Positions 3,112-29,097 of a DNA stretch of 64,000 nt are shown here, piece by piece (within the stretch, counting starts at the first letter, position 1; every line of letters begins with the position of its first letter). The notes beneath the pieces were generated by a model that worked only from the letters and a program-made list of their open reading frames with translations, was not told the DNA's origin and did not search any database. This DNA is from a virus (taxonomy: Duplodnaviria; Caudoviricetes). The stretch is from IMG/VR virus record IMGVR_UViG_3300011427_000001, positions 9,188-73,187 of that record, one strand, 5' to 3'. The position numbers were made by a program, and so were the translations under genes.

Positions 3112-3469
3112 GTGCGAGTTGTTTCATGTGTTGCTTCACCTTCTCTGGACTACGAGCAAGCAAACGACTGGCACGTTCAAGTGAGCAACCTGCTTCCTTC
3201 AACCGCACCAGTATCTTGTCATGCCGTGGAATCCAAATGTGTCGGTCCATGCAAGGCGCGTCGACCTGCTCAATGGTGCATTTGTGCACACCCGAGAATA
3301 TTGAATCAACTCTACTGATTACCTCGAAGCGTCGCACCTCCAACACCTGCGCAATTCGATCTATGTCCATGCCAACCATGAACACCCACCACATCCAATC
3401 AAGGTCGCATTGTCGCCGCCACTGGTCAGAAGAAGCCTCGAGGGCTAGCAGGCTTTCGGTGTCCATCAT
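3104..3469 (-). CDS. HTH/Myb-like DNA-binding protein
   Basis: Two HTH-like segments, including WIPRHDKIL...ASRLLARSPEKV. Confidence 0.5.
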   Translation of the reverse strand: MMDTESLLALEASSDQWRRQCDLDWMWWVFMVGMDIDRIAQVLEVRRFEVISRVDSIFSGVHKCTIEQVDAPCMDRHIWIPRHDKILVRLKEAGCSLERASRLLARSPEKVKQHMKQLAHG

Positions 3470-4304
3470 TTATTTTCCTCCAAGGCATGCGTTCACGAAT
3501 CGACTTCATCCCCAACGCGTCAGTCACGCGCTTCCACCCATCATCGTCAAGCTCATCAGGAGACCAGTGCATAGGTGCGACACCCGCAAATGGCAGCTCC
3601 ACGAGACGTCGGTTGCGCTTCACAATGTCCCAGCCGTTCTGAATGGCTTGATACTTCTTGGACATCGCTGGCAGCTCGCCCCGCACGTACTTCAACGCCG
3701 TTGTCGTGCCTACCCCGCGGATGCCCGGCACCTCATCAGTCTTGCAACCCGCAATCGCAATCACCTTGGCCCAGAGCCGAGGTTGAATACCATAGTCCTT
3801 CACAAAACCCTGCAGCGAACGAATCTTGCCCTTGTTCGGATTGTAGATTGTGACCGACCCTGAAAGCAACTGGTAGAGGTCTTTGTCCGAGGACACGACC
3901 ACGGCCTCGTCGTCCGGCCCCAAGGCTTTGACCAGTGCTGCAATGAGGTCGTCACTCTCGTACCCCGCCTGATGGAACACGTTGCGAAAGCCCATGTCGA
4001 ACAGGTACTGCTCCCGCAAGCTGTCAATCTGTCGATGCAGCTCGGCCCGGGCCTTGGTCTCCTCTTCAGTATGCTCCTCAGTATGCCGTCGCTTCTTGTA
4101 CTCGGGAAACAGAGCCTTGCGCTTGCTCTCGGTTGAATCAAAACAGAACGCCACTGCACCCGCGTCGTGGTCCGACTGCAGCATAGACAGGTCTTTCAGC
4201 ATGCCGTAGATGACACCAGTGGGAATATCTTCATGCGTCAAATGCCCCATGCTATGGAACGCACGCCACGCCAGGAAGTGCATGTCTAAAATCAAGTGCT
4301 TCAT
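3426..4304 (-). CDS. 5'-3' exonuclease / flap endonuclease (PolI N-terminal family)
   Basis: LILDM, YESDDLIA, SSDKDLYQL and the H3TH motif KTDEVPGIRGVG. Confidence 0.92.
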   Translation of the reverse strand: MKHLILDMHFLAWRAFHSMGHLTHEDIPTGVIYGMLKDLSMLQSDHDAGAVAFCFDSTESKRKALFPEYKKRRHTEEHTEEETKARAELHRQIDSLREQYLFDMGFRNVFHQAGYESDDLIAALVKALGPDDEAVVVSSDKDLYQLLSGSVTIYNPNKGKIRSLQGFVKDYGIQPRLWAKVIAIAGCKTDEVPGIRGVGTTTALKYVRGELPAMSKKYQAIQNGWDIVKRNRRLVELPFAGVAPMHWSPDELDDDGWKRVTDALGMKSIRERMPWRKINDGHRKPASPRGFF

Positions 4305-8872: not shown

Positions 8873-10380
8873 GATGGTTTCATGTTATGTTCTAGCATCT
8901 CGAGAAACTGCTCCACGTCTTCCGTGTTCACCTTGTCGTCCTTGCCCTTGGGGGTGAAGCCGAACTCAATCCCATCCCACTTAAATGGGTACTTGTGAAA
9001 CCAGGTACCGGTGGGAGGACAGATCTCATCTTCAACTTCAAGCGGACAAATGATCCACTTGAACGCCTTGCGGAGGTCTTCGTTGACCACCTGGTGCACC
9101 AAATCGAGATACTGCTTCAGTTCCTTGATGTAAACGTCACCCAGCATGCTGTCATGAACTTGCATCACCACACGTGACTTCATCTTGTGTTTGCGCAGCA
9201 ACTTATTCAGACGAGTGAGCGTCCACAGCAAGCAATGAAAGGCGCTGCCCTGCACCGGGTAGTTGATAACCTGATTGCGCCGGAACGCCCCTTCAATCCG
9301 GAAACCAGTCAACGTATCAAACCCACCTTCCTCAAGGTAGTCCTCATACCACTTCTTCTTCCACGCACTGTAGACCTTGAATCGATTGTTCCAAAAGTCA
9401 TCTTCAACCTCTTGGATGTGCTTCTCGAAAGTACCATCAAGTGGACCTCCCTTGGCTTTGGGGTCACACGCCCCCAGCTCAAAGATACCATTTGCGCGCA
9501 AATGCTCCCGCAAAGGACGGCCATCGGGACCCAACAGCTTCGCACGTTCCATCCACTCCCACAAGTCAGGGGCGCATTGCTTGTAATAGCTGCCGTAGAA
9601 CTCAGGAAACACAAACCTGTTCTTGCCACCGTAGCGATGGTTCTTGCCATACTTCTTCACCCACTCGTTCTTCAAGAAGTAAATCTGAGCTGACATGTCC
9701 CCGTGCATATCCTTGGTCGGGTCAGTCAAGTAACTAATCATGACCGGGTCTCGATGGTAGCACGTTGCAATTGAAACCTCCGCACCCTTGAAGTCATTCT
9801 CAACCAGAACGTAGTTCTGATCGGTTGCAATGAAATTGGTGCGCAGCAACTCAGCCTGCATCGGGTCACGCACTGGCACATTCTGGAAGTCCGATGACGA
9901 CCGATACGTCACCGTGGTATGCAAATCGTAATTCGGATGGAACCTCCCATTGACCAAGGTACGCTTGATGCGTTTTAGATATGTACCATGCGCCTTGTTC
10001 AGCTGAGATAGGATTTGATAGCCACGCAAGAAGTGCAGATCGATCTTTTCCAATGCACCTATCTCGACCGAAGGCTGTCCCTCCCCCTCTTCATCGCCGG
10101 TCCACTGCGTCACAGGGAACTTCATCTCACCGTACAGCACATCCCGCAACTGGTCATCGGAGTGCAAATTGGCCTTGGTGCCGAACCGCCGCTGCCAAAT
10201 CTCCCACACCTCATCCTGACGCAGCTTGTCCTCAATCCGACGCATGCGCTCCTTGGCCATCTCCGTGGTCGCATCCAACCGTCTCTCGTCAACCCTGATA
10301 CCAGTTGCCTCGATCTCAGCCAAGGCAATCATACCCTCGTGCAACAGCTGGTATCCTTTGTGTGTGTTAGGTCGTTCCAT
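8869..10380 (-). CDS. polA: family A DNA polymerase, polymerase-domain subunit
   Basis: Motif A ENDFKGAE, motif B GKNRFVFPEFYG, NYPVQGSA, motif C QVHDS. Confidence 0.92.
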   Translation of the reverse strand: MERPNTHKGYQLLHEGMIALAEIEATGIRVDERRLDATTEMAKERMRRIEDKLRQDEVWEIWQRRFGTKANLHSDDQLRDVLYGEMKFPVTQWTGDEEGEGQPSVEIGALEKIDLHFLRGYQILSQLNKAHGTYLKRIKRTLVNGRFHPNYDLHTTVTYRSSSDFQNVPVRDPMQAELLRTNFIATDQNYVLVENDFKGAEVSIATCYHRDPVMISYLTDPTKDMHGDMSAQIYFLKNEWVKKYGKNHRYGGKNRFVFPEFYGSYYKQCAPDLWEWMERAKLLGPDGRPLREHLRANGIFELGACDPKAKGGPLDGTFEKHIQEVEDDFWNNRFKVYSAWKKKWYEDYLEEGGFDTLTGFRIEGAFRRNQVINYPVQGSAFHCLLWTLTRLNKLLRKHKMKSRVVMQVHDSMLGDVYIKELKQYLDLVHQVVNEDLRKAFKWIICPLEVEDEICPPTGTWFHKYPFKWDGIEFGFTPKGKDDKVNTEDVEQFLEMLEHNMKPS

Positions 10381-11617
10381 GCAGGCTTGATTCGTTTACG
10401 TACCAAGTTGGCAACGGGTCTATCCTTAGCTTCGCCATTTGCTTCTCAGCCAGCAAATATTCAAGCAGCGTGTCAGTACCACAGTAAAGCAACAGCTGAC
10501 GAAGCTCCACTTCCTCTCGCACCCGGTTCAATACGCTACCGGCTTGGCTTTCGAGGAACTGCTTGATATGCTCATCGTACGCCTCAGCCCCCAGGTGAGC
10601 AAACGCCTGAAACTTCAACCCGCAAATGCCTTTTCGATTGTCAATCACGTGTGCTGCCAGCATGGTATCCCACAACCAATTCTGCACCGGACGCCCTGAC
10701 ACCTTGCGCGTCCACCGTTCTTCGTGTTTGAGGTTCGACGCAATGTGGTAGCAGCGTTCGGAATGCAGCAGGTCGAACGTGGCTTCAATCGCCGCTCCGT
10801 GCCAAGGGTACGCAATGGTCTTGCGTCCCCGCCAACAGGCCGAAGCACACACAATCTCACCACCCGGGGTCTCGGGCTTCAGACAGTTGTTTTCATAGTC
10901 GAACGCAATCGCCCCTCCTTTCTGTTCCATCTTGCGCAGCACTGCAGCCGCTTCGTCCGTGTCAAGCAGCACTTCAATCTGCGACTCGTAGTCTGGGACC
11001 TGTTCCCACGGTACCTCGCGATAGCTGCAGGCCTTCTCGAGATGTCGCACGAAGTCCCGGTCCATGACCTTGCTGTGCATTCGCATTAGATAGGACGGAT
11101 GGTACGTGGGGCTGATCCACACATTGGGTTTCTGGCATGGGATGTTCCAGCCAACCCAGCGAGTAATGGCACCCGGTGCCTCCTTCCAGACGTGGCCTAT
11201 CAAACTCTGCACGGGAGTGCCACCCAACAGCACAATCGAAGCGGGCTGCAACCGCTCAATCGTCGTGATCAAATTGGGGCGACAGTAGTCCACGGCCCGC
11301 TTGTCCGAAATCTTGTTGTCGGGTGGACGACAAATGAGAGCGTTCGTAGTCCAGCAGTCTTTCCTCAGGTCAATCCCAATGTGATCAAGTGCGTCTTCGA
11401 GGTAGCGACCCGCCTTGTCTACAAACTGAATGCCTTCATCGTCTTCATTCGCTCCCGGCGCTTCGCCCACGATTAAGATCCGTTTGCGACCTTCGCCGCT
11501 TGGTCGCATCTTCGGTGTCTTGCACCCCTTGTAAAGACCGCACGCCCCACACTTGGGCAATAGGCTTGCCGGTGCTTTGGTGTCCAGCAGCTCACTCCCA
11601 GCAAAAAATCCTCTCAC
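10367..11617 (-). CDS. family A DNA polymerase N-terminal subunit: family-4 UDG-like domain plus 3'-5' exonuclease
   Basis: CGACGL..GC, VGEAPG, TNALICRP, YHPSY (UDG-F4); then AFDYE, ASNLKHE, DTMLAAH, YCGTD (DnaQ-like exonuclease). Confidence 0.88.
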   Translation of the reverse strand: MRGFFAGSELLDTKAPASLLPKCGACGLYKGCKTPKMRPSGEGRKRILIVGEAPGANEDDEGIQFVDKAGRYLEDALDHIGIDLRKDCWTTNALICRPPDNKISDKRAVDYCRPNLITTIERLQPASIVLLGGTPVQSLIGHVWKEAPGAITRWVGWNIPCQKPNVWISPTYHPSYLMRMHSKVMDRDFVRHLEKACSYREVPWEQVPDYESQIEVLLDTDEAAAVLRKMEQKGGAIAFDYENNCLKPETPGGEIVCASACWRGRKTIAYPWHGAAIEATFDLLHSERCYHIASNLKHEERWTRKVSGRPVQNWLWDTMLAAHVIDNRKGICGLKFQAFAHLGAEAYDEHIKQFLESQAGSVLNRVREEVELRQLLLYCGTDTLLEYLLAEKQMAKLRIDPLPTWYVNESSLHGTT

Positions 11618-11620
11618 AGA

Positions 11621-12685
11621 TCAATCCCCTTTGACCTTTTCCTTCAGCGTCTTGCTCGTCTTGCTTTCGTCCGGCGCGGTCAAGCACGTCATGTAAACCC
11701 ACTTGCCCCCATCAACCCGCAAGCGTCCCTTGGCAATCTCCGCTTCATTGTGCTTCTCGGTCAGCTCAGTCAGCAGTTTGGGAGCAATGAGAAACTCCAT
11801 CGGCGGACCACTGTATTTGAGGTCCTTGACCTCGCGGAAGCGTCCACAGGCCCCTTCGCCCGTAATGCGCAGCATTCCACCCCGGTCCGGTCGCAACTGC
11901 ACCGTGACCACGTTGTCCTCACTGTTCTCCGCGCTGAATACTTCAGCCAAGTCGGTCGCTTCCTTCAACCCCTTGGGCAGCGTAATCGGTTCGCCTTTGA
12001 AATCCAACAGGGAATCGATGTTATGGTATTCCACCATATACCGACGGCAGGACAACACCAGGCCGTCCGCGTTGCGGAAATGAATCCACGTTTCGGTCTC
12101 GCAAAAGTCGGTCATCCCCAATGACGCAACGTGCTTGAGACTGTCCCGCCGCACCAGCATGGACGCCTTAACCCCGGTCTTCATTTTGACCCGCGTGGCT
12201 TGGAAATTGTCGCACGCCTCGATGAAGTCAGGATGCAGATGGATGCAGGTCAGCTTGAATTGGCTGGCATCCTTCGAAGCACAGTGCTGCACCAAACCCA
12301 CCCCTTCCAAGAAGTCTCCGTGCAACTCCACCCACTTGGTGGGCTTTTCCACTTTGTCGATGTGCAGCAGGATGTCGTTCTCGTGCCGGATCTCAGCACG
12401 TCGCCGCTTCCCAATCAACACGAAGTATCCGTCAGCCACCTCAACCTCGAGCTCGGTCTCGGGCATCTTGCGCAGCACGGACAGCAGTGGAGCCGCTTGC
12501 ACTGCCCCCTCAACCTTCAGCTCACATTCGTGGGTGCAAGCAATCTCATCGTTGAAAGTCATCACGGTCTGGTTCTGAAAGACAAAGCAGGAACTCTGCT
12601 CAATGATCTCTCGAGTGGACAGACCCGGTTGAACCGCTTCAAGTTGAAGCAGAAGTTTTTCCCTGTTTACGATTTGAATAGCCAT
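11621..12685 (-). CDS. sliding clamp, DNA polymerase III beta-like
   Basis: 354 aa with beta-clamp-like segments (MTFNDEIAC, LLSVLRKMP, IEACDNFQA); adjacent to the polymerase and clamp loader. Confidence 0.8.
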   Translation of the reverse strand: MAIQIVNREKLLLQLEAVQPGLSTREIIEQSSCFVFQNQTVMTFNDEIACTHECELKVEGAVQAAPLLSVLRKMPETELEVEVADGYFVLIGKRRRAEIRHENDILLHIDKVEKPTKWVELHGDFLEGVGLVQHCASKDASQFKLTCIHLHPDFIEACDNFQATRVKMKTGVKASMLVRRDSLKHVASLGMTDFCETETWIHFRNADGLVLSCRRYMVEYHNIDSLLDFKGEPITLPKGLKEATDLAEVFSAENSEDNVVTVQLRPDRGGMLRITGEGACGRFREVKDLKYSGPPMEFLIAPKLLTELTEKHNEAEIAKGRLRVDGGKWVYMTCLTAPDESKTSKTLKEKVKGD

Positions 12686-12690
12686 TGTTT

Positions 12691-13167
12691 TTAGATGTGC
12701 TTCCAGGTCTGCCGTAAGACAACTGAAGATATTGTTGACGAACTCACATTGTATTGTCGTGCGAGCCGATACTGTGTCCCGCGAATACCCTTAGAAACCT
12801 GCGCTCGAATATGCAAAACAGCTTCTGACGTTAATGTGTGATTCCCCGAATCATCTCCTACGGGATGACGTGCTCGGTTCTTCTTTATGGCATCCCTCAC
12901 GTTATCTCTAGGAGAACCCACGAACAAATGTCGCGGATTCACGCACGACGGATTGTCACATCGGTGTAAAGACCATTCGGATCTCAAAAGAGGCCTTCCT
13001 AATTTCAACTCAAGTGAAAAACGATGTGCCAAGATATGATTACCCAAACCACGCCTAGGCGCTAGGCGCCCATAGCCTTTCATGTCCTTAGAACCTAGCC
13101 ACAACCAACACTCATCCAATCGGCCCTTTCGCACCTTATTCCAGAAACGCACCAGTACCGGTTTCAT
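12691..13167 (-). mobile_element. free-standing HNH homing endonuclease
   Basis: RFWNKV..CWLW.G..GYG, AHR, HRCDNPSCVNPRHL; AT-richer than its neighbours. Confidence 0.88.
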
Positions 13168-13385
13168 TTTTCTTTTGGGCGTGGACGGTAGTTGAGAATT
13201 GGACCGGGTTGCGCCTTACCCCTATTTATCAGCGACTGCTGATGCACCGCAAAACGACGCATGGTATCCCGCACTCGGCGCTGATAGATATCGTGGAAGG
13301 TAAGCATGATTGACAGCTCGTGCTGGTGCATCAACGCCTCCGGCACCACGTCTCTGCTTGAGTTGCCGCTGTAGTAGATTACCAT
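13164..13385 (-). CDS. 73-aa protein, possible detached N-terminal piece of DpdA
   Basis: MVIYYSG...IMLTF resembles the N-terminal strands of DpdA-like TIM barrels; starts 1 nt after the dpdA stop. Confidence 0.55.
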   Translation of the reverse strand: MVIYYSGNSSRDVVPEALMHQHELSIMLTFHDIYQRRVRDTMRRFAVHQQSLINRGKAQPGPILNYRPRPKEK

Positions 13386-25960: not shown

Positions 25961-26509
25961 CTAGTATCGCGTGAGCAGCACGCCGATCTCCTCAAATGCA
26001 ATCGCGACCCGGTCTCGGGTCCAACCCAGATTCAGCAGGTGATGCTTCAAGGTACGCTGCGCTGCACACTTGGTCCGCACGTCCTTCTCACCCAGGATAG
26101 CTGACAGTTCAGCGGGAGCCTCCAGCACAAGCGAGACGACCAGCTTGGCGTCGTCTTCAAGATGGGGAAGGAAGCGCAGCAGAAACTGGTTGGGGTCTTC
26201 GGTCCCACACACCTCTTCATTCACCTCGAGGTGACCCATGTGCCGACGCTGCTTCTGCAAGAAGGTCTTCAGGTCGTTGCTGACCGCGAAGCACACGTAA
26301 GAAGAGAAGCGGGACTTCCGACTGAAGCGCTCCGGTTCGTAGCGGTCCACACATTTGACGAAGCTGTGATGCGCTTCGCTAATCAATTCGTCGGCCGGGT
26401 AATTGTATCTTCGGGCAAAGCTGTGCGCAATTTTGTAGAGCAGCAGACGAACGTCGGCATAGCATTCTGATATCGTGTCGTGTCTTAGTGCGAGGGCGTT
26501 TGCAATCAT
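25961..26509 (-). CDS. sigma70-like (region 2) transcription factor
   Basis: LLYKIAHSF...DELISEA...FVKCVDRYEP...FSSYV..AV; start assumed at MIANA. Confidence 0.7.
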   Translation of the reverse strand: MIANALALRHDTISECYADVRLLLYKIAHSFARRYNYPADELISEAHHSFVKCVDRYEPERFSRKSRFSSYVCFAVSNDLKTFLQKQRRHMGHLEVNEEVCGTEDPNQFLLRFLPHLEDDAKLVVSLVLEAPAELSAILGEKDVRTKCAAQRTLKHHLLNLGWTRDRVAIAFEEIGVLLTRY

Positions 26510-26604
26510 GTTTGGAGTTGAGTAGGATGAGACCCGTGACCCGTGCGCTGACAAAGCACGCAATCACATGAACCACACTGATGCAGCTACCGGAAAAAAC
26601 GTAA

Positions 26605-27850: not shown

Positions 27851-28302
27851 TTGCGAAGGCGTTGAAAGTAAAAGACCGCACTGTCACCAATGCTGCCCAC
27901 GACTGAGATGAGTTGCCATCCCAGCTTGCCAAGGTCGTTCAGCTCCTCTAAGGTGTCGGCCGCATCAGCCTCAGCGATCAAAGAGTGCATCTCGTACCCC
28001 TGCACCTGTTTGACCTCGGGTAGAATAATGAAGTCGGTCAGGTAGCCGTGCTGCACGACCCCGTCAGCAAAGGCATACGAAAATTTGAGACTGCTGTCTC
28101 CGTCCGGAATCGCAGCCACAATCTCAGCTTCCTGGTCCAGGTAGGTTATCATCCAATGATGCATGTTCCCCACTGCATTCTTCAACGTATGTTCCCGGGA
28201 CTGGCCCTTGGTCAGCATGTCGTCTACGTGTTTTTGGTAGCCGGGGAAGGCAAGGCGTACACGGCGCCCGATAAGATTTGTCATTGTCGATTTTGAGGCC
28301 AT
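27847..28302 (-). CDS. hypothetical protein with C-terminal DUF4177-like segment
   Basis: LEELNDLGKLGWQLISVV...FYFQR. Confidence 0.6.
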   Translation of the reverse strand: MASKSTMTNLIGRRVRLAFPGYQKHVDDMLTKGQSREHTLKNAVGNMHHWMITYLDQEAEIVAAIPDGDSSLKFSYAFADGVVQHGYLTDFIILPEVKQVQGYEMHSLIAEADAADTLEELNDLGKLGWQLISVVGSIGDSAVFYFQRLRK

Positions 28303-28328: not shown

Positions 28329-28380
28329 GGATTCTTCAGTGCAGGCGTTACCTGCAGACCCGCCTGTGCGGGTTTCGTCC
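28329..28380 (-). ncRNA. type II hammerhead ribozyme
   Basis: GGAC-GAAA-CCCGC(ACAG)GCGGG-UC|UGCAGG(UAACG)CCUGCA-CUGAAGA-AUCC; complete core; predicted cleavage between 28357 and 28356. Confidence 0.8.
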
Positions 28381-29097
28381 TTAGTTCTTTCCATGCACCG
28401 GCAACAGCGCTCGGAACTCGTTGATCTGATCCATCTGGGTCAGCGTCGGGCACTTCTTGACGATGTGCGTGAACGCATTGAGCAGCCCCCAGCTCGTCGG
28501 GACTGCATGATCACCAAACGTGGGGTGTCGGTACTCTTCGTCCACTTGCCCAATGCGGGACCACGGCATGATGCCCTGCCGGCCGCTCTCGACCAGCAAG
28601 TGCTCCACTTCCACGGGCGCCAGCTCCCGTTGCTGCAGGGCCTCGATCTTCCCCGGGAGCTCCAGCGCCTTCGCATGGTACGTATCCATCGCCCCCTCCA
28701 GTGCACTGAACAGGTCAAACCCGCTGGTGTGCTTGTTACACAGCACCACGTCCCCGCTCACCATCCCGTTGTTGCACACGAACACTCGCGTACCGACCAC
28801 GAGCTTGAGCTTGCGGCGCATCATGTTTGAGGTCAGAAACCCCAGCTCCAACGCCTGGCCGACCGGGAGCGTGACGTCGTTCACACGCAGTTGGAACGCC
28901 CCTGCGAGGTCGGCTCCATCTACGCTGAGCGAGAACTGCGACTTCTCGATGGTCCAGTTACGGGTCCGGCACTCATCTTCCACAGCATCAATCAGCATGC
29001 CGTGCGGGATGCCCTGCCAGAAGCTCTTGGCGTGGTTGGGACGCACGAGCGGGATTTGACGAACCTTTTCCAGTGTGGTGTTTGCGTTGCAGATCAT
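28381..29097 (-). CDS. DUF932-family protein
   Basis: GFLTSN...VGTRVFVCNNGMVSG...KHTS; strong leader AAAACCAACAGGAG. Confidence 0.7.
   Translation of the reverse strand: MICNANTTLEKVRQIPLVRPNHAKSFWQGIPHGMLIDAVEDECRTRNWTIEKSQFSLSVDGADLAGAFQLRVNDVTLPVGQALELGFLTSNMMRRKLKLVVGTRVFVCNNGMVSGDVVLCNKHTSGFDLFSALEGAMDTYHAKALELPGKIEALQQRELAPVEVEHLLVESGRQGIMPWSRIGQVDEEYRHPTFGDHAVPTSWGLLNAFTHIVKKCPTLTQMDQINEFRALLPVHGKN

Follow-up and report, generated by a model that had tools for sequence, protein, structure and literature searches.

Our analysis strongly supports the presence of a genuine type II hammerhead ribozyme in an early operon of a phage, where it lies on the minus strand directly behind the stop codon of a DUF932-like gene. 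The element is located in a stretch of 64,000 nucleotides (hereafter called the window) that belongs to a complete viral record of 73,187 bp with direct terminal repeats, and by descent it is a member of a large hammerhead subfamily of phage early and accessory operons. We consider it fairly probable (about 60%) that its RNA undergoes co-transcriptional self-cleavage after C17 (28357|28356) as part of the operon. This reading is favored by the complete core and the three stems, the model scores, the covariation, the synteny with the nearest relative, the position in the operon and the precedent of other phages, whereas a unique mismatch next to the core, a weakly predicted stem II, the lack of a pseudoknot, a C after stem II and a score below the Rfam gathering score speak against it. 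The window copy is thus an ordinary but well-supported member of its subfamily, and it represents a known kind of system, rather than a new one, with a rare variation adjacent to the core.

The whole element extends from 28380 to 28329 on the minus strand and is recognized by the Rfam model RF02276 (24.3 bits) as well as by a covariance model of its own subfamily, termed R1 (71.1 bits). In the 5' to 3' direction, it begins with the 5' strand of stem II, GGAC (28380-28377; positions 11.4-11.1, with C11.1 at 28377), which adjoins the UAA stop codon (28383-28381) and is followed by the core residues G12, A13 and A14 (28376-28374), which are invariant in a hand-made alignment of subfamily members (A1). 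Next comes stem-loop III (28373-28358), whose six pairs are apparent from sequence and predicted fold and covary in the subfamily; it consists of A15.1 (28373) and CCCGC, an ACAG loop and GCGGG with U16.1 (28358), the partner of A15.1. Cleavage is predicted, from the arrangement of the hammerhead core, between C17 (28357) and U1.1 (28356). The latter is the first base of stem-loop I (28356-28340; UGCAGG, loop UAACG, CCUGCA), which is likewise evident from sequence and fold and shows pairing in 100% of the cells across the subfamily. The second core segment, C3 to A9 (CUGAAGA, 28339-28333), follows the pattern C3-U4-G5-A6-N7-G8-A9 and corresponds to the CUGANGA conserved in A1, and position 17 is a C, that is, a residue other than G. 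The element closes with the 3' strand of stem II, AUCC (28332-28329; positions 10.1-10.4), in which A10.1 (28332) faces C11.1. [quoted passage not shown] The isolated 71-nt RNA is predicted to fold into all three stems, with a free energy of -20.6 kcal/mol (z = -2.6). The first-pass annotation of this DNA had described a minus-strand motif straight after the UAA, with its cleavage site at 28357|28356 and an open, three-pair stem II containing an A10.1-C11.1 mismatch. Read on the minus strand, all of its coordinates are correct, the predicted site is correctly placed and stem II has the form that it reported.

A comparison with Rfam hammerhead models, which had been proposed as a check of this assignment, returned a full-length match to RF02276 (Hammerhead_II). 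The model aligns with 28380-28315 at all of its positions (1-66 of 66), with an E-value of 4e-4 in a search of the 73-kb genome and of 0.0025 in a scan of 106 nt, but its 24.3 bits lie below the gathering score of 37. An Rfam scan of the whole window at the gathering score yielded no match. A scan of a 501-nt segment with E-values missed the element, presumably due to the filters used, and a scan of the whole window at E-values of up to 1 produced no further ribozyme candidate. No meaningful match in the genome was obtained with the Hammerhead_3 and Hammerhead_1 models, and a blastn comparison of the locus with GenBank phage records returned no match. The phage occurs in the samples SRR6448380, JGI 3300012040 and ERZ27267732. 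Over the length of the element, three further assemblies of this phage show 100% identity. Since A10.1 is thus shared by four assemblies in all, it is not an assembly error.

The subfamily to which the element belongs was delineated in viral contigs. A search pattern in which stem III, the base of stem I and the core were fixed retrieved nine further viral contigs, and a looser pattern retrieved 96 stretches. The model R1 was then built from the first 11 sequences (alignment A1). It recovers 97 copies, 91 of them distinct, from 84 sources, detects the window element with an E-value of 1.5e-17 and finds no second copy in the genome, which holds exactly one. In the alignment of the 91 distinct copies, which was fitted to R1 and therefore carries a bias toward pairing, 98.1% of the cells pair and both partners vary at 14 of 16 pairs, a degree of pairing that none of 500 shuffles and no slid register came near. 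The hand-made alignment of 11 sequences already covaries at those positions of stems I and II that the search pattern had left free. Typical members have a stem II of four pairs (62 of 88 copies measured), a stem I of six to seven pairs with a loop of 3 to 5 nt, UC as the last two bases of the cleavage triplet (U16.1-C17; 86/88) and an A immediately after stem II (67/88). Four members (L100:1399-1460, L083:4683-4735, L086:130-188 and L105:367-436) contain an extra U between A9 and G10.1 (CUGANGA-U-G), which constitutes a recurrent insertion variant at the junction of core and stem II.

This phage subfamily, which lacks a pseudoknot, is largely invisible to standard Rfam annotation. Among 23 of its copies in eight loci (L029, L034, L035, L036, L038, L039, L058 and L065), a single one reaches the gathering score (L036:12271-12329, 40.2 bits). 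The probable reason is that the Rfam model expects a pseudoknot, whereas the subfamily shows no consistent one; in 14 copies examined, no pairing of loop I with either the tail or the upstream sequence proved to be consistent. Arrays of subfamily hammerheads are common, with nine copies within 4 kb in L065, five each in L066 and L058 and four in L124. In the L065 array (9150-13228, minus strand), each of the nine hammerheads fills a gap between small ORFs.

The closest relative that we found in a large protein collection is the contig L029, whose DUF932 protein is 83% identical to that of the window. It carries a hammerhead at the same site, directly after a UAG stop codon. In this copy, the stem II strands are GGC and GCC, with a canonical G10.1-C11.1 pair, the core segments are GAAA and CUGAAGA, stem-loop III is built from CCCGC, GCAA and GCGGG, followed by UC, and stem-loop I from UGCGUG, UUACG and CACGCA. 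From the window to L029, stem I differs by two compensatory pair swaps (A-U to G-C and G-C to U-A). All four substitutions in this stem are thus compensatory and the remaining three differences lie in loops, which argues for selection on the fold along most of the divergence between the two sequences. These compensatory changes cannot fix the date of the G10.1-to-A change. The comparison also bears on the idea that the likeness to a hammerhead arose by chance, with two GC-rich hairpins, such as those of a terminator or processing site, happening to have GAAA and CUGANGA beside them. The score below the Rfam gathering score would fit this idea, as would chance occurrences of loose core patterns at other places in the window. 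However, the E-value obtained with R1, the syntenic homolog in L029 with its compensatory changes and the strong covariation across the subfamily all contradict it, as does the absence of a T run after both hairpins at a site that is missing from the terminator-scan list. Judged by the L029 synteny, the recovery of the family by R1 and the covariation, chance resemblance is effectively refuted. An intrinsic (Rho-independent) terminator at the element was likewise rejected, because no T run stands behind either hairpin and the terminator scan omits the site. The type II identity claimed by the first-pass annotation is thus strongly supported by a covarying subfamily of 91 copies and by a syntenic, canonical copy in the nearest relative. 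The annotation had made its proposal dependent on conservation of the core and stems in related phages, and such conservation is found both in L029 and in the subfamily at large.

The most distinctive feature of the window copy is its first stem II pair. The 10.1-11.1 pair is the most conserved one after 15.1-16.1 (Perreault et al., PMC3088659). Among the 91 distinct copies of the subfamily, the 11.1-10.1 pair is C-G in 86 cases, U-G in two and gapped in two; it is unpaired in one copy, that of the window, which is also the only one to have A10.1-C11.1 (1/91). The search patterns had left this position unconstrained. The GGAC/AUCC combination of the window is one transition away from the GGAC/GUCC found in L035, L081, L036, L101 and L058. 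A natural U10.1-U11.1 mismatch has been described in an otherwise conserved ribozyme, and in earlier mutagenesis U-U was the most active or best-tolerated mismatch at 10.1-11.1 (PMC3088659), so that A-C can be expected to do worse. In the literature searched, we found no published cleavage rate for A10.1-C11.1. Given that the window stands alone among 91 copies in having a mismatch at the most conserved pair of stem II, its ribozyme may cut slowly or not at all. The caution that the first-pass annotation attached to this core variant was therefore justified, and more strongly so than its author knew.

Structure predictions point in the same direction. The predicted occupancy of stem II is about 0.5, compared with a subfamily median of 0.99, which places the window copy 76th of 91. 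Stems III and I are present in the minimum-energy and centroid folds, both in isolation and with 171 nt of context. In the 171-nt context fold, they are retained and stem II is missing from the minimum-energy structure, with upstream coding sequence pairing with CUGA and CCAUC; the tail of L029 is without the CCAUC partner. The first base after stem II is a C in the window, as opposed to the A of 67 out of 88 relatives, and no pseudoknot of at least four pairs between loop I and the 3' tail is found in the window, the longest complementarity being 2 nt.

These features form the basis of the main rival to an active ribozyme, namely that the element descends from an active ancestor but is now decaying, with the G10.1-to-A change and the altered tail having abolished useful cleavage and left behind two stable intercistronic hairpins. 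Such hairpins might continue to impede exonucleases or affect how the next gene is translated. This explanation, which we regard as possible but doubtful, draws on the sole 11.1-10.1 mismatch in 91 copies, the weak predicted stem II, the failure to find a tertiary pseudoknot and the departure of the tail from the subfamily consensus. The behavior of other natural hammerhead-like sequences with core deviations cuts both ways, as some were inactive when tested but others keep low activity (PMC3088659), and the natural U10.1-U11.1 ribozyme demonstrates that a mismatch at this position does occur in nature. Moreover, all other core positions of the window copy are intact, the differences in stem I relative to L029 are without exception compensatory and the variant is fixed in four assemblies, all of which speaks against a relic. 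An unlikely variant of the active reading is that A10.1-C11.1 acts as a tuned, conditional first pair, forming an A+-C wobble at lower pH or higher Mg2+. If true, only part of the early transcript would be split before the anti-defense genes, at a constant proportion to the full-length form.

The leftward transcription unit comprises, in this order, several small ORFs, the DUF932-like gene, the hammerhead, an orphan ORF of 151 aa and an AcrVA2-like gene of 313 aa, all on the minus strand. It is headed by a predicted sigma70-like promoter (TTGACA-17-TATGTT, 29816-29788), which matches the consensus at 10 of 12 positions, and ends in a strong intrinsic terminator with a 12-pair stem and a T run (26639-26612), which separates the AcrVA2-like gene from genes for a sigma factor (25961-26563) and an SNF2 helicase. 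A scan of the stretch from the promoter to the ribozyme revealed no terminator-like site. The placement of the element in a single transcription unit, as originally suggested, is thus borne out by a promoter and a terminator that bracket it. The upstream gene (29097-28381, 238 aa) is DUF932-like: its own Pfam match is weak (22 bits, E = 1.6e-4, against a cut-off of 23), whereas its homologs carry PF06067. The first downstream ORF (28302-27847), which gene callers start at 28284 rather than at the ATG at 28302 and thus shorten to 145 aa, is without a known family, as searches of Pfam, PHROGs and Atlas all returned no match. The second downstream gene (27850-26909) gave no match in a Pfam search of its own but is AcrVA2-like by virtue of a precomputed PF26125 assignment to an identical gene in L140; its product shares 67% identity with that of the gene downstream of the L029 hammerhead.

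In the active reading, which we favor, the element would be transcribed as part of an operon of approximately 3.2 kb, from the promoter at about 29816 to the terminator at about 26612. The RNA would then fold into stems III and I together with the short, open stem II and be cut after C17. Hammerhead cleavage generates products with a 2',3'-cyclic phosphate and a 5'-OH, respectively. The DUF932 message would accordingly keep its stop codon and a tail of 24 nt that contains the stem III hairpin and ends in a 2',3'-cyclic phosphate, and the downstream message, encoding the 151-aa ORF and the AcrVA2-like protein, would carry a 5'-OH and the stem I hairpin at its start, located 54 nt ahead of the ATG at 28302 or 72 nt ahead of the ATG at 28284. 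In view of the G10.1-to-A change and the lack of the usual A after stem II, cleavage would probably be slower than in relatives. Cleavage with such ends would uncouple the fates of the two halves of the message, as RNA ends of this kind can be expected, from general bacterial RNA decay, to alter decay or translation. We infer both the cleavage itself and its effect on stability or translation from the features described above. For elements of this kind, it is standard to infer that the splitting of a polycistron sets the stability of its two halves (PMC3088659).

A comparison of related phages provides information on how the element is linked to its neighbors. In L029, the AcrVA2-like homolog starts 8 nt past the hammerhead alignment window, about 12 nt after stem II, and the 151-aa ORF is absent, identifying the latter as an insertion between the hammerhead and the AcrVA2-like gene of the window. 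DNA similarity between the two sequences ends with the final base of the CUGAAGA core (28333), four bases short of the 3' end of the ribozyme. Five relatives without the AcrVA2-like module (L030, L006, L144, L145 and L147) have no hammerhead at that spot, and their DUF932 gene runs straight into a terminator, followed by a promoter and the sigma-factor gene. We considered whether these phages had swapped the hammerhead for a terminator and promoter but rejected this idea, because the whole AcrVA2-like module is absent there and their terminator corresponds to that at 26639-26612 in the window. In one of them, L145, whose DUF932 protein is 55% identical, a canonical subfamily hammerhead (1312-1365) is found two genes further upstream in the same operon, after a gene for a 103-aa protein and before a gene with a Y4mA_C domain. 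Conversely, L033 possesses the AcrVA2-like module, but a plain hairpin occupies the site of the ribozyme. In L143 (3220-3849), a relative with 61% identity, a GIY-YIG homing-endonuclease gene, encoded on the opposite strand, comes after the DUF932 gene and the AcrVA2-like gene lies upstream of it, which illustrates that the gene order around DUF932 is fluid.

It is conceivable that the element marks a junction of gene cassettes, with accessory and anti-defense genes being exchanged at the 3' edge of the ribozyme and cleavage being secondary or serving the cassette rather than the operon. The end of similarity at 28333 with an extra ORF beyond it, the concomitant absence of hammerhead and AcrVA2-like module in several relatives, the location of the L145 hammerhead in a different gap of the same operon and the orphan status of most flanking ORFs are in line with this proposal. 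We nevertheless deem it highly improbable, because its basis is a single pairwise boundary and a small number of loci, the module of L033 comes without a hammerhead, no mechanism ties the ribozyme to DNA recombination and mosaic boundaries commonly fall into intergenic gaps in any case.

Self-cleavage within the operon would match the placement of the element, as subfamily hammerheads typically abut an upstream stop codon and precede small early or anti-defense genes. In 71 of 94 copies, an upstream ORF ends 2-8 nt ahead of C11.1, with the stop codon often lying within stem II. Manual inspection of 14 copies placed every one of them between a stop codon and the start that follows it. The majority of the 143 flanking ORFs are without a Pfam family; the recurrent families are DUF932, which is the commonest (5), ArdC (2) and pentapeptide repeats (2). 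The ArdC genes are located upstream of two subfamily copies. One of them, in L037 (551-1441), is a full-length anti-restriction gene with an ArdcN and a zincin peptidase domain that ends right at the hammerhead, an adjacency reminiscent of the association of ardA with hammerheads in the literature.

Hammerheads located between phage genes were reported in 2011, and those of type II are common among bacteria and prophages, where they frequently flank single genes, ardA among them (Perreault et al., PMC3088659). The members of RF02276, known from bacteria, prophages and metagenomes, have the same permutation as the window element, with stems I and III closed and stem II open, and share with it the CUGANGA and GAAA segments, A15.1-U16.1, C17, a short stem II and a site between genes of phage operons. 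They differ in that most, although not all, of them contain a pseudoknot between loop I and the 3' tail, none of which is evident in the window copy, and in that G10.1-C11.1 is highly but not absolutely conserved, whereas the window has A10.1-C11.1 and, like most of its subfamily, scores under the threshold. Tested type II ribozymes needed this pseudoknot for fast cleavage at 0.5 mM Mg2+ (PMC3088659). The natural U10.1-U11.1 variant resembles the window copy in having a mismatch at the first stem II pair of an otherwise canonical hammerhead, except that the window has A-C. The clustered type II hammerheads in prophage operons of A. tumefaciens, C. scindens and A. caulinodans likewise lie beside small early and anti-restriction genes, and such clusters cleave in vitro and in E. 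coli (PMC3088659). The DUF932 and AcrVA2-like neighbors in the window, the ArdC gene in L037 and the arrays in L065, L066 and L058 add to this likeness. While the published examples have been shown to cleave, the window genome contains a single copy, whose cleavage is predicted from sequence. Type II hammerheads beside phage-like genes also cleave in vivo in Desulfovibrio vulgaris (cyPhyRNA-seq, PMC8782182); they have the same architecture and show that such ribozymes work in cells, but come from another organism and differ in sequence.

The processing of long phage transcripts into shorter messages has been proposed as the role of such elements, with the function stated as unproven (PMC3088659), and the purpose of the hammerhead-between-genes arrangement is still unproven after 15 years. 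R1 and the alignment of 91 members provide a tool to find further copies in a subfamily that is mostly missed at the Rfam threshold. Moreover, the window copy represents a natural mutant that comes with its own controls, namely the canonical L029 hammerhead at the same site (3155-3210) and the canonical L035 hammerhead (3537-3592) with the same stem II except for G10.1. A comparison of the window with L029 and L035 would gauge how far a type II hammerhead without a pseudoknot depends on its first stem II pair. If active, the element would be another phage self-cleaving RNA that parts the message of an early gene from those of accessory and anti-defense genes.
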